Virus record (IMG/VR): IMGVR_UViG_2595698222_000001
Coordinates: 1 to 64,000 of that record
Direction: 5' to 3' (one strand)
Length of the DNA stretch: 64,000 bases
DNA from: a virus
Taxonomy: Duplodnaviria > Caudoviricetes
The position numbers and the translations under genes are program-made. The notes under the pieces are model-generated. The model was not told the DNA's origin. It saw only the letters and a list, made by a program, of their open reading frames with translations, and ran no database searches. Below, in pieces: positions 37,508 to 60,333 of the stretch. Position 1 is the first letter of the stretch. Each line of letters starts with the position of its first letter.

Positions 37508-37807
37508 TTAAATAGCAATTTAACAAAGTATAACTTAGGGTATCACGCACGCAAAGTAATTGATGTTAGCACAATATTAAATAATGTTGCTGATTTAATG
37601 GAGGCTGGTTATTATGGTGGCGATCTGGTGTTACAAGGGTATGCGCCTCCTGACACCTACAATAGTAATTCCTGGGGACTTATACGGTGGGTAGCTGGAT
37701 CTTCTGGTATAGCTTATTTGCAATTTGTACAAGATCGCAGTGCTGCCATTATTACCAGGTCTATTAGTAGGACGGGTAATACGGATACAGGCTGGATATT
37801 ACATTAA
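37508..37807 (+). CDS. Alternative fibre C-terminus 1A (LNSNLTKYNLG...TDTGWILH), no clear RBS
   Basis: Starts with the LNSNL junction also found in the fibre gene; beta-rich with terminal W. Confidence 0.8.
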   Translation, partial: LNSNLTKYNLGYHARKVIDVSTILNNVADLMEAGYYGGDLVLQGYAPPDTYNSNSWGLIRWVAGSSGIAYLQFVQDRSAAIITRSISRTGNTDTGWILH

Positions 37808-37816
37808 AATGATCAT

Positions 37817-38122
37817 TTAATCCAGTAGCACGAATCGAACATAGTAACCAGCATAAATTGCGGCACTTGATTTAATTACGTTAACCTGTAAGGTATTGCA
37901 GTCTATCCTCGTTATTCCGTCCATGGTCCGCAGATCTGACCATGTGCCAGTAGATAACTGTATTTGTGCGGCCAATAGGTATGTATTACCAGATGAACTT
38001 CCACTGATGTTAAATAGTTGGTTGGTAGACGTATCATTAAATACCCCGGCGGCAGTGCGGATGCGACTTGTGTCAAATTTGTTGTTCAGATTATTACTTA
38101 CTCCCGCTAAATTGCTATTTAA
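37817..38122 (-). CDS. Alternative fibre C-terminus 1B (LNSNLAGVSNNLNNKFDTSR...YVRFVLLD), start-less and absent from the ORF track
   Basis: 101 open codons from the site to TAA at 37817. Confidence 0.8.
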   Translation of the reverse strand, partial: LNSNLAGVSNNLNNKFDTSRIRTAAGVFNDTSTNQLFNISGSSSGNTYLLAAQIQLSTGTWSDLRTMDGITRIDCNTLQVNVIKSSAAIYAGYYVRFVLLD

Positions 38123-38134
38123 GGAGATCCATAA

Positions 38135-38560
38135 ATGAAAGATTATAAGATTTTTATAAACATAACAAAAGAGGTTTTAGATTCCGTGAAACCAGGTGAT
38201 TTAGTAAAAGTCAACGATTGGAAAAAACCGTTGAAGGTAATTGCTGTCTCTGATAATTATTTTGTGATGGCAAGGAAATTGTTTGGAGAATGGGAGTATT
38301 CGGTTTGTGAAAAGAAACCTTGGGGTGGAATAAGATATAACGCAATGATTGGCGGCAAATTTCATATTGGTACAGATGGTTGGGTATTTGGTTCTCCGAC
38401 ATGGATTGATTTTGATTGCGAGGGATATGACTTTGATAATTTGGAAGCGTCCCAAGCTTACATAAACTCATTTGAGTTATCAGAGGATAACAGGGATCAT
38501 TCTTTTATTTCTCCACGCAATGCCGTGCCGATAGCCAGTATTTATATTAAGTCAAACTAA
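38135..38560 (+). CDS. Hypothetical protein
   Basis: RBS AAGGAG abuts the right end of unit 1. Confidence 0.6.
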   Translation: MKDYKIFINITKEVLDSVKPGDLVKVNDWKKPLKVIAVSDNYFVMARKLFGEWEYSVCEKKPWGGIRYNAMIGGKFHIGTDGWVFGSPTWIDFDCEGYDFDNLEASQAYINSFELSEDNRDHSFISPRNAVPIASIYIKSN

Positions 38561-38666
38561 ACCACGGGTTCCGGCGTGCATGGGAAGCCGGATTAAATGC
38601 GGTCAATCAGGTGGTGGCATCTGGGCGTAAAGCAGCCCGTAACTGAATTTGTGGAGGTAAGTAGAA

Positions 38667-38996
38667 ATGAAAAATTCTAAGGTCATAGCAGCCGATGAAG
38701 AAATAATGAAAACTGCTTCAGATACTTTTTTCAGACAGTTAGTTGAGTGGATGAACAGTGAAAGTATTGAAAACACTGATAGTCTCCAAGATGCTGCTGA
38801 GATTGTCCGGAAAGAATTTCTACAGAAAGGTGACTGGTACAATGCTCTGGTAGATTCCATTGCCCAGTATTTGAGAACCATTCCAGCCAATAAAGGGTTA
38901 TACAACGTTGCAGAGGAGCTTGCTGATCGTATTATCGGAATAGAAAATTTGGAAGGAGATATCCATGGACAAGAAAGAATTGGCAAGGCTCATTGA
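38667..38996 (+). CDS. Hypothetical protein
   Basis: RBS GGAGGT. Confidence 0.55.
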   Translation: MKNSKVIAADEEIMKTASDTFFRQLVEWMNSESIENTDSLQDAAEIVRKEFLQKGDWYNALVDSIAQYLRTIPANKGLYNVAEELADRIIGIENLEGDIHGQERIGKAH

Positions 38997-39357
38997 TGGC
39001 CGGGAATATGGCTATGAACCATTCCGGGACGTTCGGCAGGCAGCGAAAGAATCTGGTCTGGTTATCGTCAGTGGTGCGTCTGATGACTTGATGGAAATTG
39101 ACGGCGCTATTTATGATGAGCAGGGTTGTTTTGAAGGTGGCGTGATATATTTTGACCGTCAAGGTGCATTTGGTAGTGATGGTTATGCTACAAATAAGAT
39201 TGTAGCCCTCTGGTGCGATAGGTCCGCATTAGACGAAAACGGAAAAGTTATTACCTGGACGTATAAAACGGATATTCCCCATGAAACTTTTATGATTTAT
39301 GAGGACGTGGCGCCTTACTGCCGGGGTATAGTATTTAATTTGGCAGATGTGAAATAG
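38965..39357 (+). CDS. Conserved phage protein
   Basis: GLVIVSGASDDLME...WTYKTDIPHETF...YCRGIVF. Confidence 0.65.
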   Translation: MDKKELARLIDGREYGYEPFRDVRQAAKESGLVIVSGASDDLMEIDGAIYDEQGCFEGGVIYFDRQGAFGSDGYATNKIVALWCDRSALDENGKVITWTYKTDIPHETFMIYEDVAPYCRGIVFNLADVK

Positions 39358-39523
39358 AGGTGAGGGATTTGGTATTTCTGAAATGGATTATTACGGTTTG
39401 GCATATATCTATGGCACTATTTATTTGCTCGACTTCTAGAGGGTTGACTTGGGAAAGGAATAAAGCTGCCGTTATTGGGTTTAGTATTATGGCTATTATG
39501 TATGTTCTGGCATTGGTGCCGAT

Positions 39524-39844
39524 TTGGAGGTGATAGATATGATGTGTTTCACAGAGCAGCAGAAACAGGAAATTGTACATACAGGAATGCTTGTTGTTGA
39601 GTTCAAGAGGTCAGTTGTTAAGGCCAGCGAAGCCGTGAAAGAGGTATTTGAGTTTGTGAAGGATGTATTGCTGCAGCTGGCAGATAGAACCACTAAAAGG
39701 CTACAGGTAATTCATCGGGGATATCAGAAATTACCTCTAAAAGAAAAATATAAAGCGGTCCGCAGGCTAGACAAGTGCGGATTCACTGAAAAAGAAATTA
39801 ACCTGATGGTAGGGGGAACATACCACTGCCGGAATAATTGTTAG
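39524..39844 (+). CDS. Hypothetical protein
   Basis: RBS GGAGGTGA before MMCFTE. Confidence 0.5.
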   Translation: MEVIDMMCFTEQQKQEIVHTGMLVVEFKRSVVKASEAVKEVFEFVKDVLLQLADRTTKRLQVIHRGYQKLPLKEKYKAVRRLDKCGFTEKEINLMVGGTYHCRNNC

Positions 39845-39858
39845 GGAGGAGTTAGAAG

Positions 39859-42227: not shown

Positions 42228-42356
42228 TGAAATTATTGACAGAACGCATCTATTTATGATAGTCTGAAAGAAGAAAAAGTATAAAGTCTGATTTAAACCA
42301 GAGCCTAGTGAGCCTTCGGACCTTTGTTAATAAACAGAGGAAGGAGGCTCTTTTTA

Positions 42357-44024
42357 ATGGATTTTCATGAACACAAAGAAATAATCAAAAAGTTAAAGCG
42401 GCAGATTGAAACGCCGCCTTCTTACGACATTCTGAACATTCTGTTATCAGAACTCCAATATACAATGCAAGATAATCCGGATTTGCCAGTTGAGGACCGG
42501 GACTTTATCATGGCCTATTCCGGGTTTATCAAGAAATGGGCGGTTACAAGGTTTGTCCAGACCATGGAAATTCGCTGGGACGATTTGTACTGGAAAACAT
42601 TGCATTTTGAAGCTCCTTTTTTGTTTGAATCTTATCTGATTTACCTGGAGAAGAACCGGGAAGCAAAAGACCGCTTTTATTTACCGAAACGCAAGCAGCT
42701 GAATAAGCATGGCTTGATTCAGGCAATGCAGGATCTGGAAGATGATAGGTTAGATATCTTAAGTATATCTATGCCGCCAGGGACGCAGAAGACAACCTTG
42801 GAGAAGTTCTTTGCATCGTGGGTAATAGGAAAGCATCCTGATGATTTTAGTTTGTTTTATTCTCACAGTGGGGATATTACGAGAATGTTCTATGACGGCA
42901 TATATGATATCACTACAAATTCAGATGAATACACTTGGAGCGAGATATTCCCAGATGTGAAACTTGAAAGCACAAATGCCAAGACAGAGACAATTAATTT
43001 TAATAAATATAAGCCTTTCCCCAATATTCAGTGTACCTCCATTGGTTCAAAAAATGCCGGTAAGGTTAGGTGTAACCGGTACTTGTATTGTGATGATCTT
43101 ATTGGCGGCATTGAAGAGGCTCTGAATAAGATCAGATTAGACAAACTCTGGTCTTTGTATAGTGTTGATGGTAAACAGAGAAAGATGGACGGCTGTAAAG
43201 AAATTCATATTGCTACAAGATGGTCCGTCCATGATGTGATTGGAAGAATAAAGAATTTATATCACAATAGTGACCGGGTGAGATTCATTAAAGTTCCCGA
43301 TATCGATCCGATTACTGAAGAATCAAACTTTGACTATGAATATAATGGTTTTTCAGTTGCTTTCTTCAATGATCAGGCACTGGCCATGGATGATATTTCT
43401 TATAAGTGTCTATATAAAAGCCAGCCAATTGAACGTGAAGGCTTGCTATATCATGAAGATGAATTAAGGCGATACTTTAAACTTCCAGAAAGAGAGCCTG
43501 ATGCTCTTCTTGGTATTTGTGATACGAAGGACAAGGGGGCAGATTATATGTTCCTACCTTGCGTGGCCCAGTATGGAAGCGATTATTACTGCTTAGATTG
43601 CGTTTGTGATGATAATTCCGACTATGGTGTTCAGTATGAAAGGTGTTCTCAGATAATAGTGAATAATAAGCTGCAGCAGTGCCAGTTTGAAAGCAATAAT
43701 GGCGGTAGCCGTGTTGGGTACGAAGTAAATAAACTGGTAGAGCAGAAAAACGGCCGTTGCAATATTACCACTAAATTCACTGATAGCAACAAGGAAACGA
43801 AGATTATCGTAAATGCGGACTGGGTGAAAAAGCATGTTTTGTTTAAAGATTCTTCACTCTATAAAGCCAAAAGCGATTATGGTATAATGATGAGTTTTCT
43901 GCTTAGCTATTCTGTAAAAGGCAAAAATCCGCATGATGATGTACCTGATGGTTGGGCGCAGTTTGCATTGTTCACACAGAATATGGGTGGCGCTAAAGTC
44001 ACAGCTTTTCGAAGACCGTGTTAA
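42357..44024 (+). CDS. terL: Terminase large subunit
   Basis: ISMPPGTQKT Walker A, YCDD Walker B, TRWSVHDVIG, FESNNGG, HDDVPD. Confidence 0.92.
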   Translation: MDFHEHKEIIKKLKRQIETPPSYDILNILLSELQYTMQDNPDLPVEDRDFIMAYSGFIKKWAVTRFVQTMEIRWDDLYWKTLHFEAPFLFESYLIYLEKNREAKDRFYLPKRKQLNKHGLIQAMQDLEDDRLDILSISMPPGTQKTTLEKFFASWVIGKHPDDFSLFYSHSGDITRMFYDGIYDITTNSDEYTWSEIFPDVKLESTNAKTETINFNKYKPFPNIQCTSIGSKNAGKVRCNRYLYCDDLIGGIEEALNKIRLDKLWSLYSVDGKQRKMDGCKEIHIATRWSVHDVIGRIKNLYHNSDRVRFIKVPDIDPITEESNFDYEYNGFSVAFFNDQALAMDDISYKCLYKSQPIEREGLLYHEDELRRYFKLPEREPDALLGICDTKDKGADYMFLPCVAQYGSDYYCLDCVCDDNSDYGVQYERCSQIIVNNKLQQCQFESNNGGSRVGYEVNKLVEQKNGRCNITTKFTDSNKETKIIVNADWVKKHVLFKDSSLYKAKSDYGIMMSFLLSYSVKGKNPHDDVPDGWAQFALFTQNMGGAKVTAFRRPC

Positions 44025-44030
44025 GGAGGA

Positions 44031-44474: not shown

Positions 44475-44590
44475 TATTATAATTGCATACACATAGTTAC
44501 CTGAAATGTATTCTATGTATTTTAATATTATTGGTATTTTATTTATTGGTAATTTGTGATAAAATTAAGCATTATGGGGGGTGCGAACTA

Positions 44591-46051
44591 ATGAAATTAA
44601 TGGATTATGAATTTGGTTTCGCTGATGCGACAAAGGAGTATATAAGGAAACCAGAAATATTTGAAAATGCTTTTTGTGATACAAGAAACATCGTAGAAAA
44701 ATTGATTGATGGATATGAATTTTTATTGATTGGAAGGAAAGGAGTTGGGAAGTCTGCGTATAGTAGCAAGATTCAATCAATAGCTAAACTTTCCAATACT
44801 GAATTAATAGCAAAATTAATGAATTTAAATGACTTTGAATTTAGCACATTCGCGAAGACGGGAATTGACAACGATGTTTCAGGAACCCAAAAATATAAGA
44901 GTTCATGGGATTTTATATTATTGTTTGCAATATATAAAGTATTATTTAATGATTTACAAATGACAGAATCTAGTGCCATAAATGATGTAGTGTTTATGCT
45001 TGATCAAGCTGGATTCTCTTTGGATAATGAATATAAAACTGATATAGTTCGATTAACAAAAATAAAAATGGGTGTTGGAGTAGTTAATTTTGATGCGGAA
45101 TTCGAAAAGAAATATAACTCATCTCCAAGTAATTATTTAGAAAGAATTTCAGTTATAACAGAAAAAATGCTGTATGGAATTTCAGATGCATACTTAAATG
45201 AAAGAAAAGTTGTAATTATTATAGATGGCTTAGATGATGTTTTAAGATATAAAAAAAATAAAGCTGAAATAATATCTAGCCTGATTAGAAGTGTAGACTT
45301 TTTAAATGACAAGTGTGCTCAATTTCATAAAAAAATAAAAATAGTATTACTTATTAGAGAAGATATTATTGCCATGTTAAATGATCCTGATCTAAATAAA
45401 ATAATACAAGATGGTGCTATTATTTTAAATTGGAGCAATCGATTAGAGGAATTAAAGAAAATTGTAGACTTACGATTTCAATTATCAGGTATGTCAGAAT
45501 CGAATGCTCTGAAGTGTTGGGATAAGATTTTTCCTCCAAAGATTAGGGGCAAAAGCACATGGTTACATGTCCTAGATCATACACTATATAAACCAAGAGA
45601 TATTTTGCAATTTCTAAAATATTGCCAAATGGAATATCCAAATAATGAAACATTATCACTTTCGGATACACAAAATTCTCTCAAGGTATATTCAAATAAA
45701 TATTTTATCGAGGAAATGAAAAATGAATTGTCGGGATTTATTGATGAAGAATTGATATATCTAATACCTACTGTATTTAGAAGATTGGGCGGAAGAGCAT
45801 TTGATTTAAAAGAGATAGTACGTTTATTTGACGAACAATGCAATAAATGTGTTACCGAAGATTCAATTAAAACTTTGTTGCTATATTTATTTGATGCTGG
45901 TTACATTGGACAGCTTGTATCAAATGGAAATAAGAATGGGACAAAGAGATCAGTGATTTTCAAATATCGTAATCCAACGGCAAGAATTGACTATTATCAA
46001 AAATTTATAACACATCAAGGTTTGCATAGTGGTTTAGGTGTAAGATTGTAA
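44591..46051 (+). CDS. P-loop ATPase moron (candidate anti-phage)
   Basis: GRKGVGKS, IIIDGLDD, LLIREDI, KPRDILQF. Very low GC. Hairpin at about 46053-46088. Confidence 0.8.
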   Translation: MKLMDYEFGFADATKEYIRKPEIFENAFCDTRNIVEKLIDGYEFLLIGRKGVGKSAYSSKIQSIAKLSNTELIAKLMNLNDFEFSTFAKTGIDNDVSGTQKYKSSWDFILLFAIYKVLFNDLQMTESSAINDVVFMLDQAGFSLDNEYKTDIVRLTKIKMGVGVVNFDAEFEKKYNSSPSNYLERISVITEKMLYGISDAYLNERKVVIIIDGLDDVLRYKKNKAEIISSLIRSVDFLNDKCAQFHKKIKIVLLIREDIIAMLNDPDLNKIIQDGAIILNWSNRLEELKKIVDLRFQLSGMSESNALKCWDKIFPPKIRGKSTWLHVLDHTLYKPRDILQFLKYCQMEYPNNETLSLSDTQNSLKVYSNKYFIEEMKNELSGFIDEELIYLIPTVFRRLGGRAFDLKEIVRLFDEQCNKCVTEDSIKTLLLYLFDAGYIGQLVSNGNKNGTKRSVIFKYRNPTARIDYYQKFITHQGLHSGLGVRL

Positions 46052-46714: not shown

Positions 46715-48706
46715 TTGCTGAATATTCCAGAAGAAATTAAAGCCTTGTACCGAGCAGATAATTTAAGTACTGCCACACAAAGGCATCTGAAGCTTCGGTT
46801 CTATGATGGGAAGATTAATCTCCCGGAAGATGTTCTTTTTCATAAAGAATCATTACCGGTTGACCAGGAGCCAATATATGTTATTGATAATAGCCAGATA
46901 ATATCCGAATCCCTTACGATAGAAGAAAATTTATGTGCAAGCCCGGACTTGAAATTTGGAGAATGTAATTCAACACAGTTTGATATAGTGGTGGCTGATG
47001 TACTACTAGATCTGACCGGGAAAGAATTTATACTTACGGTTGAGGTTGGTGGCTATGAAATGGCTATGGGGGTTTACAAAGTAGATAGCTTTGTTCGGGA
47101 ACAAGCTGATAGGCGGCGTAAGAAAATTGTTGCCTATGATCGAATGTTGAAATTTGACGTTGACGTGGCGGAATGGTATCAAGGTCTGTCCTTTCCCATG
47201 ACCTTGAAACAGTTCCGGGATTCACTGTGCGCGTATGTCGGCGTTACTCAGATCTCCGTGATATTGCCTCTTGACGATATGCAGATTACAAAAACCATTG
47301 ATCCGGAGCAGTTGGATGGCCGTAAGGTTTTAATTGCCATCTGTGAAATAAATGGTTGCTTCGGAAACTTTGATAAGATCGGCCGGCTTACATATAAATT
47401 TCTGGGTTTTTCAGGTTTGTTTCCGTCAGAGACTTTATATCCGTCTGATGATTTGTTTCCATCAGAAATGACCAACGCAGAAAATTTGTCACGGTACAAA
47501 CAGTCTGAAACCTATTATGAGGATTTTGTAACAAGACCATTTAACAAAGTGCAGATTCGGCAGGAGGAAGGTGATGTAGGGGTTTCTTACGGGTCGGGAA
47601 AAAACTGCTATATTATTCAGGGGAATTATTTGGTTTATGGTAAGTCAGCAGAAGAACTTCCATCAATTGCGGCAACGGTATATGAGCAGATATCCAGGAG
47701 GATATATAAACCAAGTCATATTGTAGGCCCGGCACTGCCATGGGTGGAGGTTGGCGATGGCATTATTTGCTATACCACCGATGATGTTATTGAAACTTAC
47801 TGTCTTAAGCGTACTATGAAAGGTATTCAGGGCATGATGGATACCTATGAATCTCAAGGAAGTAGTGAGCGGGAACAGAGTTTCGGACTTGGTGACCAAA
47901 TTATTCAACTTGAGGGTAAGGCGGCTGTTATTAAAAAGTCTGTGGAAGAAGTATCCGTAAGGGTAACTGACCTGAAAGCAGAAACCGAAGCAAAGTTCGC
48001 TATTACCGCTGAACAGATCCTTGCAGAAGTCACCAGGGCAAAGCAGGCAGAGGCTTCTTTGAGCATCAGGGCGGATCAGATTGCTTTATCCGTGACAAAC
48101 CTTACCAATGATACTAATTCACGGTTTATGCAGACAGCCGAACAGATCGCCCTTAAGGTGAGCAAAGGGCAGGTATCTTCACAACTTTCAGTAGAGAGTG
48201 ATAAGGTTACGATATCCAGCAACCGGCTCATTGTAAACAGTACAAATTTTCAACTTGATGGCAATGGAAACGCCACATTTAGCGGAAAGGTTCAAGGTGC
48301 GCAGGTTGTAGGTTCTTCAATAAGCGGTGGTTCAATCAATATAGGTGGCGGTACTTTCTGGGTGGATTCCGGAGGAAATGCAGCTATTAACGCAGGACAA
48401 ATAAATCTTGGAAGTGTAAATATAAATCCTAATTATTCTGATCTGGGGGCGTTTAGGGTTACTAGTCAAAGGTATGGAGCAATCTATAGTGCGAACGGTG
48501 AAATAGAACTCGTGACAAGTCAAAATGACGGAACCGGTCCGGCATTAATATTGAAAAGAGGTGGAAATGTATCAACCAGGGTTGGATATGGAAGTATAGT
48601 AACTGGAGATATTTGGTTAACTAATCGAAGTGATTTTTGGGGAGGTTGGACAATAACTGATGAAATAATATTATTACATAATAGGGTTTTTGGAACGAGT
48701 TATTAA
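46715..48706 (+). CDS. Baseplate hub / tail spike protein
   Basis: Hub-like N-terminus, coiled-coil (TAEQI repeats), Gly-rich beta-helix C-terminus. Confidence 0.75.
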   Translation: MLNIPEEIKALYRADNLSTATQRHLKLRFYDGKINLPEDVLFHKESLPVDQEPIYVIDNSQIISESLTIEENLCASPDLKFGECNSTQFDIVVADVLLDLTGKEFILTVEVGGYEMAMGVYKVDSFVREQADRRRKKIVAYDRMLKFDVDVAEWYQGLSFPMTLKQFRDSLCAYVGVTQISVILPLDDMQITKTIDPEQLDGRKVLIAICEINGCFGNFDKIGRLTYKFLGFSGLFPSETLYPSDDLFPSEMTNAENLSRYKQSETYYEDFVTRPFNKVQIRQEEGDVGVSYGSGKNCYIIQGNYLVYGKSAEELPSIAATVYEQISRRIYKPSHIVGPALPWVEVGDGIICYTTDDVIETYCLKRTMKGIQGMMDTYESQGSSEREQSFGLGDQIIQLEGKAAVIKKSVEEVSVRVTDLKAETEAKFAITAEQILAEVTRAKQAEASLSIRADQIALSVTNLTNDTNSRFMQTAEQIALKVSKGQVSSQLSVESDKVTISSNRLIVNSTNFQLDGNGNATFSGKVQGAQVVGSSISGGSINIGGGTFWVDSGGNAAINAGQINLGSVNINPNYSDLGAFRVTSQRYGAIYSANGEIELVTSQNDGTGPALILKRGGNVSTRVGYGSIVTGDIWLTNRSDFWGGWTITDEIILLHNRVFGTSY

Positions 48707-50151: not shown

Positions 50152-50364
50152 ATGATTGATAATGTGAAAAACGTGGAAGAGGCTGTTAAACTGGCAAAAC
50201 GGACAACTTGCAATGATCTTTTATTTGTTGCAGGCATGGCAAGGTTTTATAATTGCAAGCCATTGAATATGGAGAGGGACGATTTTCTTCTCTTTTTAAG
50301 TACACTTTACCATTATGGAAAGATTCAGGGAATACGACAGGAACGAGCAAAGAGAAGAAATTGA
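50152..50364 (+). CDS. Small hypothetical protein, possibly SOS-regulated
   Basis: YHYGKIQGIRQERA. AAACGTATGTTC at 50002-50013 lies between TTGAAA and TATAGT. Confidence 0.55.
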   Translation: MIDNVKNVEEAVKLAKRTTCNDLLFVAGMARFYNCKPLNMERDDFLLFLSTLYHYGKIQGIRQERAKRRN

Positions 50365-50702
50365 ATGACAACATTTTAGTGGTTGTCGATTATTTAGCAA
50401 AATTAGCTGACAACAATTTTGTGGTGTGTGGTTATTCCTTTGACTGACCAGAAAACTCTAAGGAATAGTGAAGTGAAGGACATTTTCCCGTCACCGTATT
50501 TACTGAAGCGAAAATTCGCCTTAGTAAGCTCACATCAAAAAGATAGTGGTTAATAATGATAAATATACGGATTTTTAACGATGGACAAATGTCCGTGGTT
50601 GATTATTTTAATGGTGAAAGCTAAAGAGTACTGGCTTGGAAATGGGTTATGAGGTCAAAAAGATATTTGATGCCAATTACGGTGAGGTAAATACATATCA
50701 TC

Positions 50703-51074
50703 GTGAAGTTTGGGAAGCGGTTTATCCCGAATATGAAATTTAATAAAGTAATGAGTTTAGAAAGAGCGTCCTTAACCGGACGTTCTTTTTCTACGCCGAA
50801 AGGAGGAAATAACTTGAAAAGGGTAATCACATTTACTGAGGAACAGGTAATGCAGATACAGTACATGTTAAATGCCGTCACCGTAACCGGTATCCAGAAT
50901 GCCAAGCAGGTGGCAGCCATTGCGCAAATGTTGGAGTTGGGAATGCCGGAGGAAATTAATGAGTCCGCAGAGAGCGAAAAATTTAAAGACGTGTATTCGC
51001 CGGTCGATTGGGAAAACCCGCCTGAAAGAAAGACCACAATCAGTAACGAAAAAAAGAAAGAGGGTGCCAGTTAA
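50703..51074 (+). CDS. Small tail-associated protein (start probably TTG near 50814)
   Basis: RBS AGGAGG; coupled to the next gene. Confidence 0.5.
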
Positions 51075-52003
51075 TGGCTTATGGACCATATTACTACATA
51101 ACTGACTGGAAAAATGAACCTTCGCAGGAAACACCCATAAACCGTACAAATCTCCTTAAAATTGAGAATGGCATTAAAGAGGCAGATAACCGGATTGTTC
51201 AGCTTGATGCCAAGAAGGCAGAGCAGGCCCTTGTAAACACCCTTGTAAAAGAAATTACCCTGGATACGGATACAGGTATCCTGACCGTGACCCAACAGAA
51301 TGGAACAGTAACTACTTATGACCTGGCCATTGAAAAGGTTGTAGCAAACTTTGACATTAATGATGATAATGAGCTGGTTCTCACCTTGGCAGACGGCACA
51401 CAGAAGGTAATTGACCTTACCCGGTTTGTCTATTCCGTGGACAGTACATCTACGATTGCAATGAAAATCCTTAACCGGACTATTACCGCAGAGATCGTTG
51501 ACGGTTCTGTGACCATGGCTAAATTGGACGCTTCCATACAGATGGAACTTAGGCAGTACATGCTTGATGCTCAGGCAGCCAGGGATATGTCCCTCCAATA
51601 TCAGAATAATGCCAAGATCTTCCGGGATCAGACGGAGGTAATTGCAAACGAGGCCGTAACAGACATAGCTGCAGCCGGGGGCCGTGTAGATGAAACCTTG
51701 ACAGAGTTTAATTCCCTGCTTATGAACGGGTATTTCAATGGACCGATGGGGCCGCAGGGGCTACAAGGAAATCAGGGGGCCACGGGGGCCACAGGAGGAC
51801 AGGGGCCACAGGGGATTCAGGGGATCCAAGGTCCTCGTGGGCCACAAGGGGAACGAGGATCTGATGCTGTAGTGACGCAGACTAATGGTAATTATATTTT
51901 CCAGATACGAGATGGACACTTATATGTGATTTACCCAGACTCTTCTTCTGAGCCGCCGCCAGTGCATATTAATGAAGCAGGACATTTTATAGTGACTTTT
52001 TAA
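51074..52003 (+). CDS. Tail fibre/baseplate protein with collagen-like repeat
   Basis: [21 protein letters not shown]; G-x-y repeats. Confidence 0.8.
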
Positions 52004-52015
52004 AGGAGGTCAGAT

Positions 52016-53068
<1,053 letters not shown>

Positions 53069-53072
53069 TCAC

Positions 53073-53330
53073 TTATACGATTGTGGTTGTTCCTGTACTG
53101 ACGTCATTAAACGATCCGTCCGGATTGACCGTAAATGTGAAATTGCTCAAATATAGGTGGTTATCCCTTATGCCAAGTCTTGTAGCGGTACCTGTGGCAA
53201 AATTACGTGATGTAATATATGTTCCGGTAGCATCGTTATAGATAGTCGATCTTAATGTATTTTCGCTATTAATTAAACTCATAGACTTCTGTACACCACT
53301 ACCAAACAGTCCAACTAAATTGCTATTTAG
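53073..53330 (-). CDS. Alternative fibre C-terminus 2B (LNSNLVGLFGSG...GTTTIV)
   Basis: Would be in frame with the fibre N-terminus if unit 2 inverts. Confidence 0.85.
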   Translation of the reverse strand, partial: LNSNLVGLFGSGVQKSMSLINSENTLRSTIYNDATGTYITSRNFATGTATRLGIRDNHLYLSNFTFTVNPDGSFNDVSTGTTTIV

Positions 53331-53406
53331 TAGAAAAGAGAAACTTAAAAACTGGTCCCTCATAGGGGCTTATTTTATTGCCTGAATACGGGCGGAAAGG
53401 AATCTT

Positions 53407-53835
53407 ATGAGTATTGAAAAAATCAAATTCGGTGATCAGGTATTCGACCTGGTGCCCGCAGGTGTAGATCTTGTAGATGGTGGAGGAACCATCAAATTTC
53501 TGATGGGAGAAAAGCGCTTTGAGGAGATCGAAACCATCCTGCAGGCCAATAGTACCATCAAGCAGATTGCCCGATCAGGCGATACAGACTGGTCGCGATC
53601 TGATCTGGTTTATGGTGATTTTGTATCAAGAGATGCCAACTATGTAATAGGTACGGCGGATGATGGTGTAACCGTCATTACGGCCGCTGTAATGATTGCC
53701 ACGTTCCGTACACCAGATTTACGCGAAAGGGTAACAGCACTGGAAAAAGAAAATGAGAATATCAAAAAGGAAAATGCAGCAATGAAAGAAAGTTTAGGAA
53801 CTCTGATTTTAAATAACTTAGAGGAGGTTAAATAA
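53407..53835 (+). CDS. Tail fibre-associated protein (chaperone-like position)
   Basis: C-terminal coiled coil; lies between the fibre and the XkdX-like gene. Confidence 0.55.
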   Translation: MSIEKIKFGDQVFDLVPAGVDLVDGGGTIKFLMGEKRFEEIETILQANSTIKQIARSGDTDWSRSDLVYGDFVSRDANYVIGTADDGVTVITAAVMIATFRTPDLRERVTALEKENENIKKENAAMKESLGTLILNNLEEVK

Positions 53836-53972
53836 TGTTTGATATGCTGAAGTGGTTATACGATGGTGGAAAAGGAAAGTTGACTATCAATGGCCTGGTA
53901 AATGCTGTCATAAAGGGCTGGATTACCGAAGCACAGAAACAGGAGATCATTGGAACAATAGACAGCCAGTAA
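53835..53972 (+). CDS. XkdX-like small protein
   Basis: MFDMLKWLY...AVIKGWITEAQKQEIIG; RBS GGAGGT. Confidence 0.7.
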   Translation: MFDMLKWLYDGGKGKLTINGLVNAVIKGWITEAQKQEIIGTIDSQ

Positions 53973-53988
53973 AACAGGGAGGGGAGAT

Positions 53989-54654
53989 ATGATACTTGAC
54001 TTCCAAGTCAACAAGCAAAATTTAATTAGAGCAGACACCGAACAGCCGGCGGCCCAGAGTATGCAGTATCTTATGTGTCGGTTTACCTTCCAGTCTGATG
54101 ATTGGGACAGCATGGAAAAGCACGCTGTCTTTCGGAAATATCTAAGTGATAGCATTGATGCCTATACGCTCCCGTTGAATAGCGAAGGAGTCGCTATGGT
54201 TCCGTCAGAAGTTATCACAGCTAGAGGCTTTGAGGCATCTGTATACGGTTATAATGATGGGCAGCGGATTACCACGAACAAGATATACATTTCGATTCAG
54301 GAAACTGGATATGAGCAGGGAAAAGTACCAAGCGTCCCTGCTCATGATTTATATGAGCAACTCCTTGATGCCATGAAAAAGCAGGTAAATGGTTTGTCTT
54401 ATGAATCAGGATACATGCAACTCATGGCAGGGGGGATGTCAATAGGCGAAAGGGTCCGTGTATCAGGAACAAATGAAACCCGGGAAATAGAATTTACTAA
54501 TGATGGGACCTATATAAAGTGGCGGTATACAGATAGCAATGATTGGCAGCAACTGGTAAGCCTTCAGGCAATTACCGGTCCGCAGGGTCCACCGGGGGCA
54601 ACGCCAGAATTTGAAGTGAGATCGGGGCGCCTAATCGCAAAGTATAATGAATAA
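53989..54654 (+). CDS. BppU-like baseplate/fibre adaptor
   Basis: F-FQSDDW...K-AVF...VPSEV...TTN; short collagen tail. Confidence 0.65.
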   Translation: MILDFQVNKQNLIRADTEQPAAQSMQYLMCRFTFQSDDWDSMEKHAVFRKYLSDSIDAYTLPLNSEGVAMVPSEVITARGFEASVYGYNDGQRITTNKIYISIQETGYEQGKVPSVPAHDLYEQLLDAMKKQVNGLSYESGYMQLMAGGMSIGERVRVSGTNETREIEFTNDGTYIKWRYTDSNDWQQLVSLQAITGPQGPPGATPEFEVRSGRLIAKYNE

Positions 54655-55294
54655 GGAAGTGAAAGAAATGGCGGTAAGAGAAGAAGATTTAGGAAGTGTC
54701 ATCGGCCCTCAGGGCCCTCAAGGAATACAGGGGGAAGTCGGCCCGACTGGTGCAAAAGGTGATAAGGGCGAAGATGGAGCAAAATGGCTCACAGGTACCT
54801 CTGCTCCATCAACTCAAGGTACGAACGGGGATTATTATTTAAATACCAGCAACTGGGATGTATATCAGAAAGCATCGGGCACTTGGTCTAAAACAGGAAA
54901 TATCAAAGGTGCTACAGGTGCCAAGGGTGATAAAGGCGATCCGGGTGCGACCGGAGCCCAAGGACCAAAGGGGGATCCTTTTGCTATTGCCAAGACCTAT
55001 ACAAGCGTAGCTGCAATGAATTCAGGATATTCCACGGACGGTGTTGGTGTTGGACAGTTCGTAGTGATTGATACCGGAAATGTTGAAGATGTTGACAATG
55101 CGAAGTTGTATTTAAAAGGGGTTACTGCCTATACCTACATTACGGATATGTCCGGGTCGACCGGCTTAACAGGTCCTCAGGGGCCAAAGGGCGCAACGGG
55201 TGCGACAGGCCCTAAAGGCGATAAGGGTGATCAAGGGGTATCTCCCATGTTTGAACTTAGAAGCGGGCATTTATTTGCTATCTATCCGGAATAG
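54647..55294 (+). CDS. Collagen-like fibre protein
   Basis: DLGSVIGPQGP start shared with the 52016 gene; G-x-y repeats. Confidence 0.75.
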   Translation: MNKEVKEMAVREEDLGSVIGPQGPQGIQGEVGPTGAKGDKGEDGAKWLTGTSAPSTQGTNGDYYLNTSNWDVYQKASGTWSKTGNIKGATGAKGDKGDPGATGAQGPKGDPFAIAKTYTSVAAMNSGYSTDGVGVGQFVVIDTGNVEDVDNAKLYLKGVTAYTYITDMSGSTGLTGPQGPKGATGATGPKGDKGDQGVSPMFELRSGHLFAIYPE

Positions 55295-55334
55295 CAGAGG
55301 TTGTGACAATTTATAGAAAGCATGAGGTAATTAT

Positions 55335-55556
55335 ATGCCTACAGAAATAATGGTGGCACTTATTAGTTTGGCCGGCAGTGGGGTGGGGGCTTTTATAGGA
55401 ATCCTGGCATCTGCAAAGCTTACTAATTATCGCCTAGAGCAGTTGGAAAAGAAGGTTGACAAACATAATACTGTAATTGAACGCACTTTTAGGCTTGAGG
55501 AACAAATGAAAGTTGCAAATCACCGCATAGCGGATTTAGAGGAAAAAGGAGATTGA
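55335..55556 (+). CDS. Small membrane protein (holin-associated)
   Basis: One TM helix followed by YRLEQLEKKVDKHN coiled coil. Confidence 0.7.
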   Translation: MPTEIMVALISLAGSGVGAFIGILASAKLTNYRLEQLEKKVDKHNTVIERTFRLEEQMKVANHRIADLEEKGD

Positions 55557-55560
55557 TTAT

Positions 55561-55854
55561 ATGGAACAGATCATGAATTACGTAAAACCGGAACTTATTA
55601 TTGTAGCGGTGGTGCTGTACTTTCTGGGAATGGGCCTTAAGCAGAGCCAGACGGTCAAGGACAAGTACATTCCGCTGGTAAATGGTGCTGTAGGAATCGT
55701 TCTGTGCGGCGTATATGTCTTAGCTACCAGTGCCTGCCAGACTGGGCAGGAAATTGCTATGGCGATATTTACGGCCATTACGCAGGGTGTTCTGGTTGCA
55801 GGATTGAGTACATATGTAGATCAGATTATTAAGCAGTCTAGAAAAACTGAATAA
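55561..55854 (+). CDS. Phage holin
   Basis: Three hydrophobic segments, KDKYIPL, AITQGVLVAG; precedes the endolysin. Confidence 0.88.
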   Translation: MEQIMNYVKPELIIVAVVLYFLGMGLKQSQTVKDKYIPLVNGAVGIVLCGVYVLATSACQTGQEIAMAIFTAITQGVLVAGLSTYVDQIIKQSRKTE

Positions 55855-58423: not shown

Positions 58424-58584
58424 ATGATCTTATTAATACTATTATATGCTAATCTTACATGTTCATAACATCATAATGTAGATATAATACTAGCGGCCTG
58501 GGCGGGCAGCCAGGAGCATACCAAGCCATCCACTATTGATTTTTCGAACGTTCGTGCCGATTCCAAATACTCCCATATGTTTTC

Positions 58585-59415
58585 CTATCTATTGTAATAC
58601 TGCTCAAACCATCGTGGTTTTCTCATATATTCAGCTTTTTCTTTCGTTTCCTTACCAGACTCCCTAAAAAATCCGCAGCTTGTATGATCGGCTCCGCAAC
58701 CTTCTTTATCTCTAATGTAATGGGGGCAATGGTTAATGTCCTCCGCGAGCCCACAATTTCCTAACATGCTAACACCTCGATTGTCTGTTCTGTTAATGGT
58801 GGAAATAAAAGGAGGGAAGCACTGTGGCTTCCCAATTCTTGTTAATGAATGCCTACTCTGAATAATCCAATTGTCCATTGAATCGTTTTCTGGTTGCAGG
58901 CGGTAATGACTCTTTTCTTTAAAAAACCGTTTTACTGTAGCCGAGTCATCGACCAGTGCATCAACAATATCCCCATTATGCGCAGTTGCTCGGTATTCTA
59001 CGATAATCTGATCGCCTTCAAGAATACCTGCGTTGACCATACTGTTTCCTTTAACTTTTAATATAAAGGTCTCTGCATTTGGAAGTAATTCAGCTGATAT
59101 GGGATAATAGTTCTCAATGTTTTCCTCTGCATAAAGAGGCAGTCCGGCCGCTACGGTTCCGAGGAGCGGAACGTTCACAACCTCCCGGCGTGTCAGCTGG
59201 AAACAATCGTCTATGATTTCAATGGATCTTGGCTTAGTTGGGTCTCTTCTTATGTATCCCTTTTCCTCGAGAATCGACAAATGAGAATGGACGGAAGAAG
59301 TTGATTTTAAATTAACTGCTTCACATATTTCTCGGACCGATGGGGGATAGCCATTCTTTAAGATTGATTTTTTTATATACTCTAAAATTTCCTTTTGGCG
59401 TTCTGAAATGTCCAC
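58585..59415 (-). CDS. lexA: LexA homologue with its normal C-terminus replaced and read through into a small Cys-rich ORF
   Basis: GYPPSVREIC, VAAG, GNSM, ATVKR, LQPEND, then divergent sequence. Internal RBS and ATG at 58767. Confidence 0.85.
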   Translation of the reverse strand: MDISERQKEILEYIKKSILKNGYPPSVREICEAVNLKSTSSVHSHLSILEEKGYIRRDPTKPRSIEIIDDCFQLTRREVVNVPLLGTVAAGLPLYAEENIENYYPISAELLPNAETFILKVKGNSMVNAGILEGDQIIVEYRATAHNGDIVDALVDDSATVKRFFKEKSHYRLQPENDSMDNWIIQSRHSLTRIGKPQCFPPFISTINRTDNRGVSMLGNCGLAEDINHCPHYIRDKEGCGADHTSCGFFRESGKETKEKAEYMRKPRWFEQYYNR

Positions 59416-59472
59416 ATTTAACCCGTCCTTTATTTTGTTTTACTGATAATAGCATACTTAGATGCAAAAAGC

Positions 59473-59484
59473 AAACGTTTGTTC
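59473..59484. promoter_or_regulatory. SOS box between lexA and the divergent ORF
   Basis: AAACGTTTGTTC (reverse complement GAAC-AAAC-GTTT). Confidence 0.65.
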
Positions 59485-59536
59485 GAAAAAGACTATACAC
59501 GTAAAGTAATTTGTAGTATCATTATAGAAAAGGTAG

Positions 59537-59854
59537 GTGATTAAGATGATGGATACTATATCCAAGGATTTATATAGTAAAGTTATGAAGGCCCAATATC
59601 AGATGATTGAAGCTTTTTTAGATTATGTGAACTATGAAGATGAAATAGCAGACGGTTTGACAGGAATGTCATATATATTATTTTGTGAAAACATTCCATT
59701 TTCTTTTGATGGGCAATGCATAGCGGTACCTGATTTTGGATTAAAAATATCTTCTGGAGAAAAAGAGAAATTATATGTTGAATTTGAAAATGTAAAGAAA
59801 TCCGAATGTTATCCTGCAGAGGTCTATAATAAATATTTAGAAAAGAGAAAATAG
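59537..59854 (+). CDS. Hypothetical protein; its stop codon lies inside the left end of unit 3
   Basis: RBS AGGTAGGTG; TAG at 59852-59854 falls within AAATAGCAATTT. Confidence 0.6.
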   Translation: MIKMMDTISKDLYSKVMKAQYQMIEAFLDYVNYEDEIADGLTGMSYILFCENIPFSFDGQCIAVPDFGLKISSGEKEKLYVEFENVKKSECYPAEVYNKYLEKRK

Positions 59855-60011
59855 CAATTTGAATAATACGAAATCGGCCCTAACAACTACTCAGGCAAAC
59901 ATCGATACCCGTATTCCGTCTCGAATCGCTTTCCGATGGAATGATGGAGGAGCCCTACAGCTCTACATAGATGGTGTCTATTATGCATCGATAGAATTTA
60001 TTGATAAATGA
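59850..60011 (+). CDS. Alternative fibre C-terminus 3A (NSNLNNTKSAL...GALQLYIDGVYYASIEFIDK), start-less
   Basis: 53 open codons from the site to the TGA in the central palindrome. Confidence 0.75.
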   Translation, partial: NSNLNNTKSALTTTQANIDTRIPSRIAFRWNDGGALQLYIDGVYYASIEFIDK

Positions 60012-60015
60012 TCAT

Positions 60016-60333
60016 TTACTGTAGTGTAATAGGTGATCTGAGTATGCACCAGAATACTTTTAAACTTTCGGAGGCGAAACTTGGGCTTGTGTTATAGGCC
60101 ATCAATCTAAATCCAGCTGGGGTTAAAGAGACGGCACTTATCTCTACGTCTGCCCACCCAGCCCCCATACCCCCTTTACTTAAAAGTATGGCGTAATTAT
60201 CATCTGATAGGGGCGTGCCAAACGGGATGTCATAAATTGCGCTGCCAAGTGGTTGTAATGCGCTTACAGTGTAAGACCAGTGCTGTGCATTTTTTGCCAA
60301 ATTATTACTTAGGTTATTTAAATTGCTATTTAA
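60016..60333 (-). CDS. Alternative fibre C-terminus 3B (LNSNLNNLSNNLAKNAQ...KVFWCILRSPITLQ)
   Basis: ORF 60016-60300 extends in frame to LNSNL at the site; beta-sandwich-like pattern. Confidence 0.82.
   Translation of the reverse strand, partial: LNSNLNNLSNNLAKNAQHWSYTVSALQPLGSAIYDIPFGTPLSDDNYAILLSKGGMGAGWADVEISAVSLTPAGFRLMAYNTSPSFASESLKVFWCILRSPITLQ

Follow-up and report, generated by a model that had tools for sequence, protein, structure and literature searches.

A dispersed set of tail-fibre tips in a clostridial prophage and their probable exchange at two short DNA sites

How does a prophage with a single tail-fibre gene come to carry further fibre tips far from that gene, and can those tips reach it? 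Here, we analyse a prophage of ~76 kb in the 5.27-Mb genome of a Lacrimispora-type clostridium. The window, i.e., the 64,000-nucleotide stretch analysed, starts with the prophage, which extends to about 75.4 kb in window coordinates. We identify eight interchangeable tips for the one fibre gene, organized as four convergent pairs at four places, one at the fibre gene, one 15 kb upstream of it and two downstream, at 7 and 22 kb (Table 1). Two short DNA sites, a 12-mer end site and a centre site, delimit each of the tips. An earlier note on this DNA had counted three pairs and six tips; its three units stand, and the fourth pair, directly 3' of a tape-measure-sized ORF of 1455 aa, lies just outside the window. 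The layout is a scattered variant of known phage host-range switches, and we consider a tail-fibre tip exchange system its probable, though far from certain, function.

Two short sites delimit every tip

The 12-mer AAATAGCAATTT is overrepresented at every scale. All seven copies in the window are exact although one mismatch was allowed, compared with 1.52 ± 1.39 copies in the shuffled window, in which seven were reached in none of 100 shuffles. The whole genome has 11 exact copies versus two for the reversed control pattern, and nine of the 11 lie within 38 kb in this one prophage, as four inverted pairs and an orphan. Across the 49 genomes of the genus searched, 293 copies compare with 54 for the control. 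The earlier note had named background frequency as evidence against a switch; the 12-mer is above it both in the window (7 versus 1.5) and genome-wide (11 versus 2). In 578 kb of the phage and its relatives, 49 copies are exact and 15 have one mismatch (reversed control, 0 and 7) and, therefore, the site does not drift at third codon positions or in non-coding copies.

In its fuller form, (T)AAATAGCAATTT(A), the end site encodes NSNL, and each of the nine prophage copies opens an NSNL tip in frame. The six ORFs named previously all begin AAT AGC AAT TTx, as had been claimed, and their outer flanks are unrelated. A stop codon lies just upstream of the start in four of the eight cassette ORFs and at the orphan. 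The inverted repeat reported at the fibre gene was also confirmed (17 nt, ACTAAATAGCAATTTAG, at 52708-52724, with its inverted copy at 53315-53331).

Every prophage pair meets at a second conserved site with the consensus TAAATGATCATTTA. This centre site shares its outer bases with the end site, while its middle is different and palindromic (GATC versus AGCA between similar arms). The convergent inverted-pair geometry is present in 30 units, of which 26 contain the consensus, two more have near variants and two lack a centre site; within 23 units (13.9 kb) there are 14 copies of AATGATCATT, versus two in the other 564 kb. TGATCA marks the unit centres at 37810, 53066 and 60009. The claim that the tips stop at this shared motif is correct for 2A and 3A, which end at its TGA, while 1A, 1B, 2B and 3B end at a TAA 1-5 nt away. 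The end and centre sites are no less exact in the remote pairs than in the local one. The conserved part of either site is only 12-14 bp, which is short for a complete tyrosine-recombinase site and counts against the exchange reading.

Table 1. Features of the tip system in window coordinates
Feature	Position	Strand	Basis or remark
Copies of AAATAGCAATTT	37510(+), 38109(-), 52711(+), 53317(-), 59849(+), 60320(-), 62005(-)		window pattern search
Xer-like tyrosine recombinase, 345 aa	27237..28274	+	PF00589 (2.8e-29) and SAM-like N-terminal domains
Unit 1 (slot 1), silent pair	37510..38120		paired end sites and centre
Unit 1 end sites	37510-37521(+), 38109-38120(-)
Tip 1A, 98 aa	37511-37807	+
Unit 1 centre AAAATGATCATTTA	37806-37819
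Tip 1B, 100 aa	37817-38119	-
Expressed tail-fibre gene, 350 aa	52016..53068	+	collagen repeat, tail-fibre PHROGs
Unit 2 (slot 3), expression locus	52711..53328		paired end sites and centre site
Unit 2 end sites	52711-52722(+), 53317-53328(-)
Tip 2A, 118 aa	52712-53068		expressed
Unit 2 centre AGAATGATCACTTA	53061-53075		TGATCA 53066-53071
Tip 2B, 84 aa	53073-53327	-	silent
Unit 3, silent pair	59849..60331		paired end sites and centre
Unit 3 end sites	59849-59860(+), 60320-60331(-)
Tip 3A, 53 aa	59850-60011	+
Unit 3 centre TAAATGATCATTTA	60005-60018
Tip 3B, 104 aa	60016-60330	-
1.67-kb block	60332..62004		cold-shock protein and CarD-like genes (-), then 66-aa ORF
Orphan end site	62005..62016	-	portal-side end of pre-portal slot (slot 4)
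Fourth pair (4A/4B)	74822(+)/75305(-), window-equivalent		genome 1377698/1378181; just outside window

The expressed fibre consists of a collagen-like constant part that runs to LNSNL, followed by tip 2A. In 15 aligned fibre homologues, conservation extends to NSNL and the sequences beyond are unrelated. Likewise, five distinct contigs that carry the closing bases of the fibre before the site run into five different tips (IUPAC pattern with three degenerate positions; the preceding 20 nt are identical to the window in three of the five). The model of tip 2A (pLDDT 74) aligns with the heads of the receptor-binding proteins (RBPs) of the lactococcal phages p2 and TP901-1 (TM 0.60-0.64, probability 1.00); where modelled, i.e., for 2A, the predicted tip thus matches receptor-binding heads of this type. 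As stated earlier, the six tips first named are otherwise unrelated, with no significant pairwise similarity past the NSNL start (best E-value 0.05). Tip 3A is related to 4B of the fourth pair (E 3e-10), and 2A and 4B have their first 14 residues in common.

Tips have moved between slots in relatives

Several comparisons with related phages demonstrate, at the level of sequence, that tips change slots. First, remote tips are found at fibre C-termini, where the earlier note had proposed to look for them: 1B is the expressed C-terminus of the fibre homologue P0002 at 99/100 residues, and a 4A-like tip is the expressed fibre end in P0009. A 79/100-identical relative of 1B is expressed in a metagenome contig, and a cassette in the pre-portal slot of G202:C42 matches 1B at 92% DNA identity. 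Second, tip 4B occupies the post-tape-measure slot here and the slot after a sigma-like gene in G202:C42; 2A is expressed in the window phage and is the silent partner in G201:C7; and at the fibre gene of the IMG/VR provirus L119 the silent partner is a tip 79% identical to 3B. Third, pairings re-assort among tip clusters defined at ≥60% identity, 2A|2B, c1|2A, 2B|c1 and c8|2A all being seen. A search for an expressed or relocated homologue of 1A found none, and 3B had no homologue among longer proteins, both points against the exchange reading. The previous reading of one expression locus with remote silent reservoirs is borne out in that the remote units hold genuine fibre tips, 1B and 4A being expressed, and 3B located at the fibre locus, in relatives.

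The silent tips are under protein-level selection by their substitution patterns. In nine measurable tip pairs, including tips silent in both genomes, dN/dS is 0.06-0.37, and 3B compared with its L119 version gives 0.07. Purifying selection on doubly silent tips requires that their expression is frequent enough for selection to act on it.

The slots themselves are conserved, the same five positions being filled in different relatives; slot 1, for instance, is also filled in G201:C7. Slot 5 has no unit in G215:C16, the difference being a clean indel. Gain or loss of an entire unit in this way is not something that its own inverted sites could produce by recombination, which counts against the exchange reading. 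At the portal block, where the window has the orphan site alone, relatives carry an immediately adjoining cassette unit, and homology of G252 to the window begins at 62003, right at the orphan site. The 1.67-kb block next to it is flanked by end sites of the same orientation (60320-60331 and 62005-62016), and no homologue of it was found in the relatives examined. Assembly graphs also fork at the sites. In G261, a contig of 605 nt is exactly one unit, from site to site, and four different flank contigs each overlap it by 85 nt; two contigs of G201 have 127 nt of tip in common and diverge just past the 12-mer. The sequencing run X1 has a different sequence after the left end site of unit 1, and in run X4 the flanks of a 2A|2B unit are unlike those of the window's fibre locus, one of them resembling the post-tape-measure flank.

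Route of exchange, candidate recombinase and alternative explanations

Of the three routes suggested previously, cassette exchange agrees best with the data, since the end site and the centre site form the limits of shared tips: when two units have just one tip in common, homology runs from the 12-mer into the centre motif in five of six comparisons, and in the sixth (tip 4B) it stops 20 to 30 nt before the centre motif. By contrast, the suggested large inversions were seen in none of the five contiguous relatives; all are collinear with the window, and exchange is therefore favoured over standing large inversions. We suggest that the DNA coding for NSNL at the end of the constant part of the fibre acts as a recombination site. 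Recombination of end site with end site and, separately, of centre site with centre site would transfer tips, singly or as a pair, between stores and fibre gene. A local flip of the pair would swap 2A for 2B, whereas an inversion at end sites followed by one at centre sites would let a remote tip replace the expressed one and return the intervening genes to their orientation. The same double crossover could act between two co-resident phage genomes. Tip switching would then take place within a lineage and presumably change host range.

We infer that a site-specific recombinase acts on these sites, and the Xer-like tyrosine recombinase at 27237-28274 is the candidate for doing so in trans. It lies 24 kb upstream of the fibre site, lacks an arm-binding domain and is distinct from the prophage integrase (window 1-1263), which gives the only other PF00589 match near the prophage. 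XerA, XerD and XerC models match it below their cut-offs, and its best PDB sequence matches are XerC-like, XerA and XerD. A homologue (43-97% identity) shares a contig with a fibre unit in all six of the relatives' phage contigs that reach far enough, one of the six being matched as DNA only. On the other hand, phages with a homologue of only 43% identity use exactly this 12-mer too, which is odd for a cognate enzyme-site pair. In G202 no homologue was found at E ≤ 1e-30, and G205 and G206 have only matches of 28-30% identity; all three are MAGs or drafts and carry units. The absence of an adjacent invertase was correctly noted, as no recombinase adjoins any unit and the prophage has no PF00239 match. 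Among the landmarks given for the units, TerL (42324-44024) and the lysis genes (holin, amidase) were verified, while the ORF called TerS (36838-37287) has no Pfam or PHROG match.

The alternative that survives best, although we regard it as unlikely, is an evolutionary mosaic, in which related phages have, over long periods, recombined preferentially at the 12-mer and the centre motif, with the phage RecT (8155-9078) or host recombination as the agent, the remote pairs as parked products and no programmed switch. All evidence for movement does come from comparisons between genomes, the five contiguous relatives are collinear, no invertase adjoins a unit, and the phage encodes RecT. Moreover, contigs from the same strain have one arrangement only: in runs X2 and X3, which match the window without difference, contigs cross unit 2 in the reference arrangement, with no alternative junction. 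This absence is weak evidence because contigs drop rare variants. However, 12 identical bases are very short for homology-driven exchange, and exact sites in non-coding silent copies (49 versus 15) fit a protein recognition site better than a joint. The inverted-pair geometry kept in 30 units and the purifying selection on tips silent in both genomes also argue against a mosaic.

Still less likely is a local two-state switch, in which only the pair at the fibre gene inverts, 2A against 2B, and the remote pairs, left over from duplication, have no way of returning to that gene in this genome. No feature is more widespread than the +/- pair of 12-mers at the fibre gene (8 of 51 related loci), one complete provirus has this pair alone, and large inversions were not observed. 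Against this reading, 1B and 4A are expressed in close relatives, 3B appears at the fibre locus elsewhere, the remote slots are conserved, and the remote tips have intact frames with low dN/dS and sites as exact as the local ones. Finally, it is very improbable that the units are MITE-like, small non-autonomous elements whose cargo, the tips, lies between 14-bp terminal inverted repeats and whose movement depends on a transposase. In favour of this, units are cleanly present or absent at intergenic positions, as at slot 5, and one lies in a non-phage context adjoining a recombinase gene. Against it, the copy of the repeat within the fibre gene is in frame and functional, each half of a unit moves on its own with the centre as breakpoint, and units recur at five slots and not at many new positions; no consistent target duplication was seen by eye, and no transposase was noticed among the ORFs scanned.

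Comparison with known systems

The tip exchange system that we favour has a functional analogue in recombinase-mediated cassette exchange, an engineered lox/FRT method with heterospecific 34-bp sites. In both, a unit lies between two sites with like arms and different middles; the analogy is functional only, and the phage arrangement is natural and has only 14 conserved bp. In the R64 shufflon, the tyrosine recombinase Rci recognizes many short sites of which only one side is conserved, and start-less C-terminal cassettes of a contiguous array adjoining rci are exchanged onto one constant gene, the plasmid pilV adhesin. Many short sites, start-less C-terminal cassettes, one constant gene and, in the window phage as a candidate, a tyrosine recombinase are common to R64 and the window phage; however, pilV is not a phage fibre, the phage array is dispersed and it has two classes of site, while we know of no second class described for R64. 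In the Gin, Cin, Pin and Min systems, recombination at sites within the fibre gene exchanges the tail-fibre C-termini, the alternative tips are kept inverted and start-less, and a small serine invertase is encoded beside the contiguous segment. The window phage has similar start-less inverted tips and a site inside the fibre gene, but no serine recombinase, and its cassettes are dispersed.

These fibre inversion systems, Gin (Mu), Cin (P1), Pin (e14) and Min (p15B), are treated in section 8 of PMC6109161, the source that also describes the closest known system, the Rin shufflon of Bifidobacterium prophages (Mavrich et al. 2018), which is reported from Eggerthella lenta prophages as well (PMC8778435). 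As described there, Rin and the window phage both join a constant N-terminal RBP part to alternative C-terminal cassettes of about 95-100 residues, both have a short asymmetric repeat before each cassette that is rare elsewhere in the genome (11 bp in Rin, 12 bp here), and in both the variable parts are similar to the C-terminus of the TP901-1 RBP. The Rin enzyme is a XerD-like tyrosine recombinase that lacks an arm-binding domain and is not the integrase, as is our candidate. Rin differs in its site sequences and in forming one contiguous array beside rin, whereas the window phage and its relatives have convergent pairs in up to five slots over 38 kb, with the candidate recombinase 24 kb from the fibre site; the same source (PMC6109161) mentions a second inverted locus without an adjacent recombinase. 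Sequencing reads of prophage and virion DNA revealed inversions in Rin, while none was seen here, in contigs only. The window phage further differs from Rin in the centre site, the second conserved site at which the two tips of every pair meet and which would allow single tips to re-assort.

Cassette pairs, their two sites and their tips

Four convergent cassette pairs (units 1 to 4, with tips 1A/1B to 4A/4B) lie at 37.5, 52.7, 59.8 and 74.8 kb in window coordinates and form no single contiguous array. The earlier note had counted three pairs and six tips; its three pairs in the window stand, but its total does not, since the fourth pair, just past the window, brings it to four pairs and eight tips. 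The window and the 12 kb downstream of it form one prophage, and the host-type genes beyond unit 4 therefore place this unit at the right end of the prophage. The modules are arranged unusually: from 42324 to ~75.3 kb, portal, capsid, tail and tape measure follow TerL and the baseplate, fibre, lysis and accessory genes. All five contiguous relatives examined have this arrangement as well, and the cassette slots lie at module borders. The ORF at 36838-37287, previously called TerS, is without a family match. Among isolated phages, no close named phage was found; relatives of the tail protein at 46715-48706 are only 30-33% identical, the best being from Roseburia phage Jekyll.

Features of the prophage, copies of the end site and recurring slots (window coordinates unless stated; G numbers are relatives' genomes, with contig after the colon; X1 and X4 are public sequencing runs, X4 a metagenome)
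Feature	Position	Remarks
Integrase	1-1263	left end; M78-type repressor partner also there
Early region		SSB, RecT, DnaB-like helicase, several methylases
Second tyrosine recombinase	27237-28274	followed by sigma-like regulator
TerL	42324-44024	late region, which also holds a second sigma-like gene
Sll1717-family P-loop ATPase	44483-46051	NCBIfam 1.7e-80
Tail protein	46715-48706	accompanied by collagen-like fibre genes, holin, amidase
GH18/LysM, LexA-like, cold-shock and CarD-like genes		minus strand; after lysis genes
SPP1-type portal	62262-63713	followed by major capsid protein and 1455-aa tape-measure-sized ORF
Unit 4		after 1455-aa ORF; then host-type genes (bPH, MsrA, choline-binding proteins, nitroreductase)
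Inverted pair of AAATAGCAATTT	37510/38109
Inverted pair of AAATAGCAATTT	52711/53317
Inverted pair of AAATAGCAATTT	59849/60320
Fourth inverted pair of AAATAGCAATTT	genome 1377698/1378181 (window-equivalent 74822/75305)	just past the window
Orphan copy of AAATAGCAATTT	62005 (-)
Slot 1	after 37304-37498 ORF	filled in window, G201; run X1 has site, then different sequence
Slot 2	after sigma-like gene, 44.4 kb	filled in G201, G202; window carries ATPase gene there
Slot 3	fibre gene	filled in all
Slot 4	against portal block	filled in G202, G203, G252; window has orphan site, with unit 3 1.7 kb further out
Slot 5	after tape measure	filled in window, G202:C47, G252; in X4, one flank of the 2A/2B unit resembles slot-5 flank

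Tips begin at an end site, the 12-mer AAATAGCAATTT. A search of the window that tolerated one mismatch returned seven copies, every one of them exact, compared with 1.52 +/- 1.39 copies in shuffled windows; at least seven copies were reached in 0 of 100 shuffles. The 5.27-Mb genome contains 11 copies versus two of a reversed control pattern. Nine of these 11 copies are at cassettes or at the orphan slot end, and the other two, which equal the control background level, are lone copies without a tip-like frame. Each paired copy starts an ORF in the frame N-S-N-L, and the outer flanks are mutually unrelated. At unit 2, a 17-nt perfect inverted repeat (52708-52724 and 53315-53331) has an in-frame tip on either arm. 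The 12-mer is above background and conserved in frame. Across 578 kb of the window phage and its relatives, it occurs 49 times exactly and 15 times with one mismatch (0 and 7 for the reversed control), and in the 49 searched genomes of the genus there are 293 copies versus 54 for the control.

The paired ORFs converge on a centre site that reads (T/A)AAATGATCA(T/C)TTA. The stop codon of tips 2A, 3A and 4A is a TGA within this motif, that of tips 1A, 1B, 2B and 3B is a TAA 1-5 nt from it, and tip 4B ends 28 nt before it. The centre consensus TAAATGATCATTTA is present in 26 of 30 units, with near variants in two more, and is absent from two; AATGATCATT has 14 copies within 23 units versus two in the other 564 kb. 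The end site, (T)AAAT-AGCA-ATTT(A), and the centre site, TAAAT-GATC-ATTTA, have their outer bases in common and differ in the middle. These counts indicate that both sites are constrained at the nucleotide level. The prophage also encodes a D12-class (Dam-type) adenine methyltransferase at 29816-30577, and the centre site of every unit contains GATC. It is pure speculation that methylation by this product is linked to recombination at the centre site.

The eight tips are 53-118 residues each. The six of the earlier note, described there as unrelated in sequence, indeed have no significant similarity among themselves; tip 3A is related to 4B, and the first 14 residues are common to 2A and 4B. 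Among 8000 candidates scored, 552 fibre relatives were found at E <= 1e-20, of which 17 were fetched and 14 aligned with the window protein. The aligned homologues are conserved up to N233-x-N235-L236 and unrelated beyond. The suggestion that the remote ORFs are fibre C-termini was borne out in relatives, in which tip 1B forms the expressed end of the fibre homologue P0002 (99 of 100 residues identical) and a 4A-like tip that of homologue P0009. Moreover, a metagenome contig carries a tip identical to 1B at 79 of 100 residues after a near-identical end of the constant part, and in five distinct contigs the end of the constant part and the site are followed by five different tips. The whole fibre protein as a family-wide query was swamped by collagen repeats, and no close relative was obtained in this way. 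Tip 1A had no relative in viral_contigs, and a comparison of tip 3B with the longer proteins of a 5.8-billion set gave 0 of 301 candidates at E <= 1e-5, which is weak evidence.

The AlphaFold model of tip 2A (8-row alignment, pLDDT 74.1, pTM 0.64) consists of a helix followed by a beta-sandwich. Its best Foldseek matches are the RBP heads of the lactococcal phages p2 and TP901-1 (probability 1.00, TM 0.60-0.64), and its BFVD matches are minor tail and receptor-binding proteins. In this predicted structure, the variable part resembles the C-terminal head of the TP901-1 RBP. The 226-aa protein P0083 has the globular part of 2A (DLKYFSQ onward) at its end, after another N-terminal part and without an NSNL junction; therefore, the head domain also spreads by routes other than the 12-mer site. 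In the IMG/VR contig L125, the fibre site and its nearest inverted copy (420 and 5220) are 4.8 kb apart versus the usual ~600 bp, and the far copy opens the tip that is expressed in P0003.

Slots and tip movement in related prophages

Among 51 related loci (one-genome-per-species contigs), the exact 12-mer is present in 11; a +/- pair lies at the fibre gene in eight of the 51, and further pairs lie 6-8 kb off in three. Five relatives were followed over tens of kb, i.e., the contigs G201:C7, G202:C42, G203:C1 and G215:C16 and the complete genome G252. From recombinase to tape measure, each of the five is collinear with the window, and a large inversion is fixed in none of them. In G215:C16, slot 5 is empty, and the unit amounts to a clean indel behind a terminator. 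When an empty slot 1, the left flank of unit 3 and the 60332-62004 block were sought in relatives, the flanks were too diverged or absent. The slot-2 position (44483-46051) lies between the sigma-like gene and a phrog_1194 gene, and in run X1 it holds 3.4 kb of different DNA; it is a hot spot for variable cargo. The 60332-62004 block, which holds the cold-shock and CarD-like genes, lies between two end-site copies that point the same way (60320-60331 and 62005-62016); integration of a one-site circle at a site would be expected to leave this pattern. In relatives, a cassette unit directly adjoins the portal block, unlike in the window with its 60332-62004 block.

When tips were clustered at >=60% identity over >=70% of the shorter tip, nine clusters had two or more members, and 31 tips were singletons. 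Tip 2A is the expressed tip of the window and of two G202 prophages and a silent partner in G201. The tip of cluster c1 is expressed in the related locus L024; in G202:C42 it is a silent partner, and G202:C20 pairs it with 2B. Tips 1B, 4A and 4B change slot between genomes, and at the fibre gene of a complete IMG/VR provirus the silent partner is a 3B tip of 79% identity. In X4, contigs run from both ends of the 2A/2B unit into other flanks, one of which, by eye, resembles the flank after the tape measure. In units that share one tip and not its partner, homology extends from the 12-mer to inside the centre motif in five of six comparisons; in the sixth (the 4B pair), the similarity is weak and stops 20 to 30 nt before the centre motif. 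Tips move, and they do so as half-units. The dN/dS ratio is 0.06-0.37 in nine measurable tip pairs, and a tenth pair is without a synonymous difference; a separate comparison of 3B gave 0.07. These pairs include 2B, 4B, 1B and 3B, each silent in both genomes compared, which shows that silent tips are under selection at the protein level.

Two G201 contigs have their first 127 nt, a tip, in common and diverge just after the site. In the genome G261, a 605-nt contig is exactly one unit, site to site, and four different flank contigs overlap it by 85 nt each, three of which look like coding fibre ends and one of which is non-coding. The G261 forks could reflect two identical copies or a mixed population. 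Together, the forks in G201 and G261 are hints of current activity. Among the G261 loci (L100, L110-L113), two of the four flank contigs, C13 and C6, carry paralogous coding sequence on opposite sides of the unit, which looks as though two convergent fibre-type genes had one unit in common. In runs X2 and X3, which are identical to the window, unit 2 appears only in the reference arrangement among Logan contigs, which drop rare variants. Loose ends at 52711 and 52745 in these runs were considered as a new junction and rejected because they represent the paralogous beginning of tip 4B and the flank belonging to it. Contig gaps made two regions uninformative, i.e., 37400-39400, which has no cover in X2 and X3, and the inside of unit 2, which has almost no cover in X1 between pieces near-identical to the window (49435-52046 and 53315-55698).

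Candidate recombinase and proposed two-site exchange

Of the five PF00239 matches in the genome, none is within the prophage; the nearest lies ~150 kb off in a 588-aa frame, and the only small one (208-aa frame) lies 3.7 Mb off. Thus, in line with the statement in the earlier note that no invertase is adjacent, the prophage lacks a serine recombinase, and its only tyrosine recombinases are the integrase and the distinct product of 27237-28274. This product has a PF00589 catalytic domain and SAM-like core-binding domains; its matches in NCBIfam and PDB are of the Xer type, and an arm-binding domain was not detected. Its gene lies 9.2 kb from the nearest unit and 24.4 kb from the fibre site. A homologue is present on the fibre-unit contig in all six phage contigs of relatives that reach that far, ~20 kb from the fibre site in G293 and ~21 kb in G204:C17, compared with 24 kb upstream in the window. 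At the protein level, the homologues are 85-90% identical in G201, G203 and G215 and 43% identical in G204:C17 and G293; for G252, the match is at the DNA level only (81%), and G204 has a 97% copy on a separate contig. No homologue was found in the drafts G202, G205 and G206. The Xer-type domains and the homologues on fibre-unit contigs make the 27237-28274 product, on sequence grounds, the best candidate enzyme. Alternatively, it may be the product of a core gene with another role, and the fact that phages whose homologue is 43% identical use the identical 12-mer speaks against a simple cognate pairing of enzyme and site. L080 (G206:C23, 8385-10070) holds a cassette unit whose end and centre sites are those of the window, and another tyrosine recombinase gene lies 138 bp away from this unit. 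The product of that gene, a possible invertase, is 27-28% identical to the window's, and its context is host genes (two PBPs, an RHS-repeat protein) with no recognisable phage.

We suggest a scheme for the candidate recombinase in which each site class would recombine with its own kind, end with end and centre with centre. At the fibre gene, 2A and 2B would be swapped by a local flip. If the fibre end site recombined with the oppositely oriented end site of a remote unit, the resulting inversion would join the constant part to the remote tip and turn the intervening block. A second inversion, between centre sites, would restore the orientation of the block, the net result being the exchange of a single tip. 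Equal products would result if this double crossover took place between two phage genomes sharing a cell. Two inversions in succession would explain the collinearity, the re-assorted pairs and the breakpoints at both sites; whole-unit gain or loss at a slot is outside this explanation. It is possible, if rather doubtful, that the prophage carries a natural two-site cassette-exchange machine, in which one phage recombinase would act on two site classes with like arms and incompatible middles (AGCA at tip starts, GATC at tip ends). The fibre gene could then exchange single tips with stores tens of kb away, or two phages in one cell could exchange them with each other, with gene order kept. In this machine, the stores would bracket whole structural modules, and therefore the same sites may have produced the unusual fixed module order of the lineage; a Dam-type methylase might gate the GATC site. 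If exchange is enzymatic and current, a temperate gut phage would draw on a private library of host-recognition heads and would trade heads with relatives, gene order being kept. Inversion searches confined to recombinase neighbourhoods or short segments would then miss such systems, and the compact natural pair of heterospecific sites, together with its recombinase, would offer a ready means of exchanging the receptor-binding modules of laboratory phages.

Comparison with known tip-switching systems

To our knowledge, known phage tip-switching systems keep all spare tips in one block adjoining the invertase. In R64-type shufflons, the Rci recombinase and sfx sites lie beside the pilV gene of a conjugative plasmid; the context here, by contrast, is a prophage fibre gene. 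Gin, Cin and Min are serine invertases beside contiguous segments, as summarised in PMC6109161. By its anatomy, the system described here resembles Gin, Cin, Pin and Min in having a constant fibre part and alternative C-termini at inverted sites inside the gene; however, there is no small serine recombinase beside the segment or elsewhere in the prophage. In a survey of gene-altering inversions, tail fibre genes are reported among the enriched families (PMC9881135).

The closest described system is the Rin shufflon. It is a contiguous array beside its recombinase, with a constant and a variable RBP part, an 11-bp repeat before each cassette, TP901-1-like variable parts and an XerD-like invertase that has Xer-type catalytic and core-binding domains and is given without an arm-binding domain (PMC6109161). 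For Rin, inversions have been detected in sequencing reads from lysogens or virions, and here the contigs of runs X2 and X3 gave the reference arrangement only. A Rin-type shufflon is also described in Eggerthella prophages (PMC8778435). The two systems are alike in the phage-encoded XerD-like tyrosine recombinase, distinct from the integrase and here with no arm-binding domain detected, in the short asymmetric repeat before every cassette, rare elsewhere in the genome, and in the TP901-1-like variable part, here in the predicted structure of tip 2A. They differ in that the recombinase gene here does not flank the cassettes, the nearest unit being 9.2 kb off, and in that the cassettes form four dispersed pairs whereas those of Rin form one contiguous array. 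No account of dispersed fibre cassettes, or of a second class of sites, emerged from a literature search with most subscription journals outside its scope. Unlike in the known switches, one fibre gene here has its spare tips distributed across half of a 76-kb genome in conserved slots. Each tip lies between two different short sites, and relatives show the same tips in other slots and on other fibre genes.
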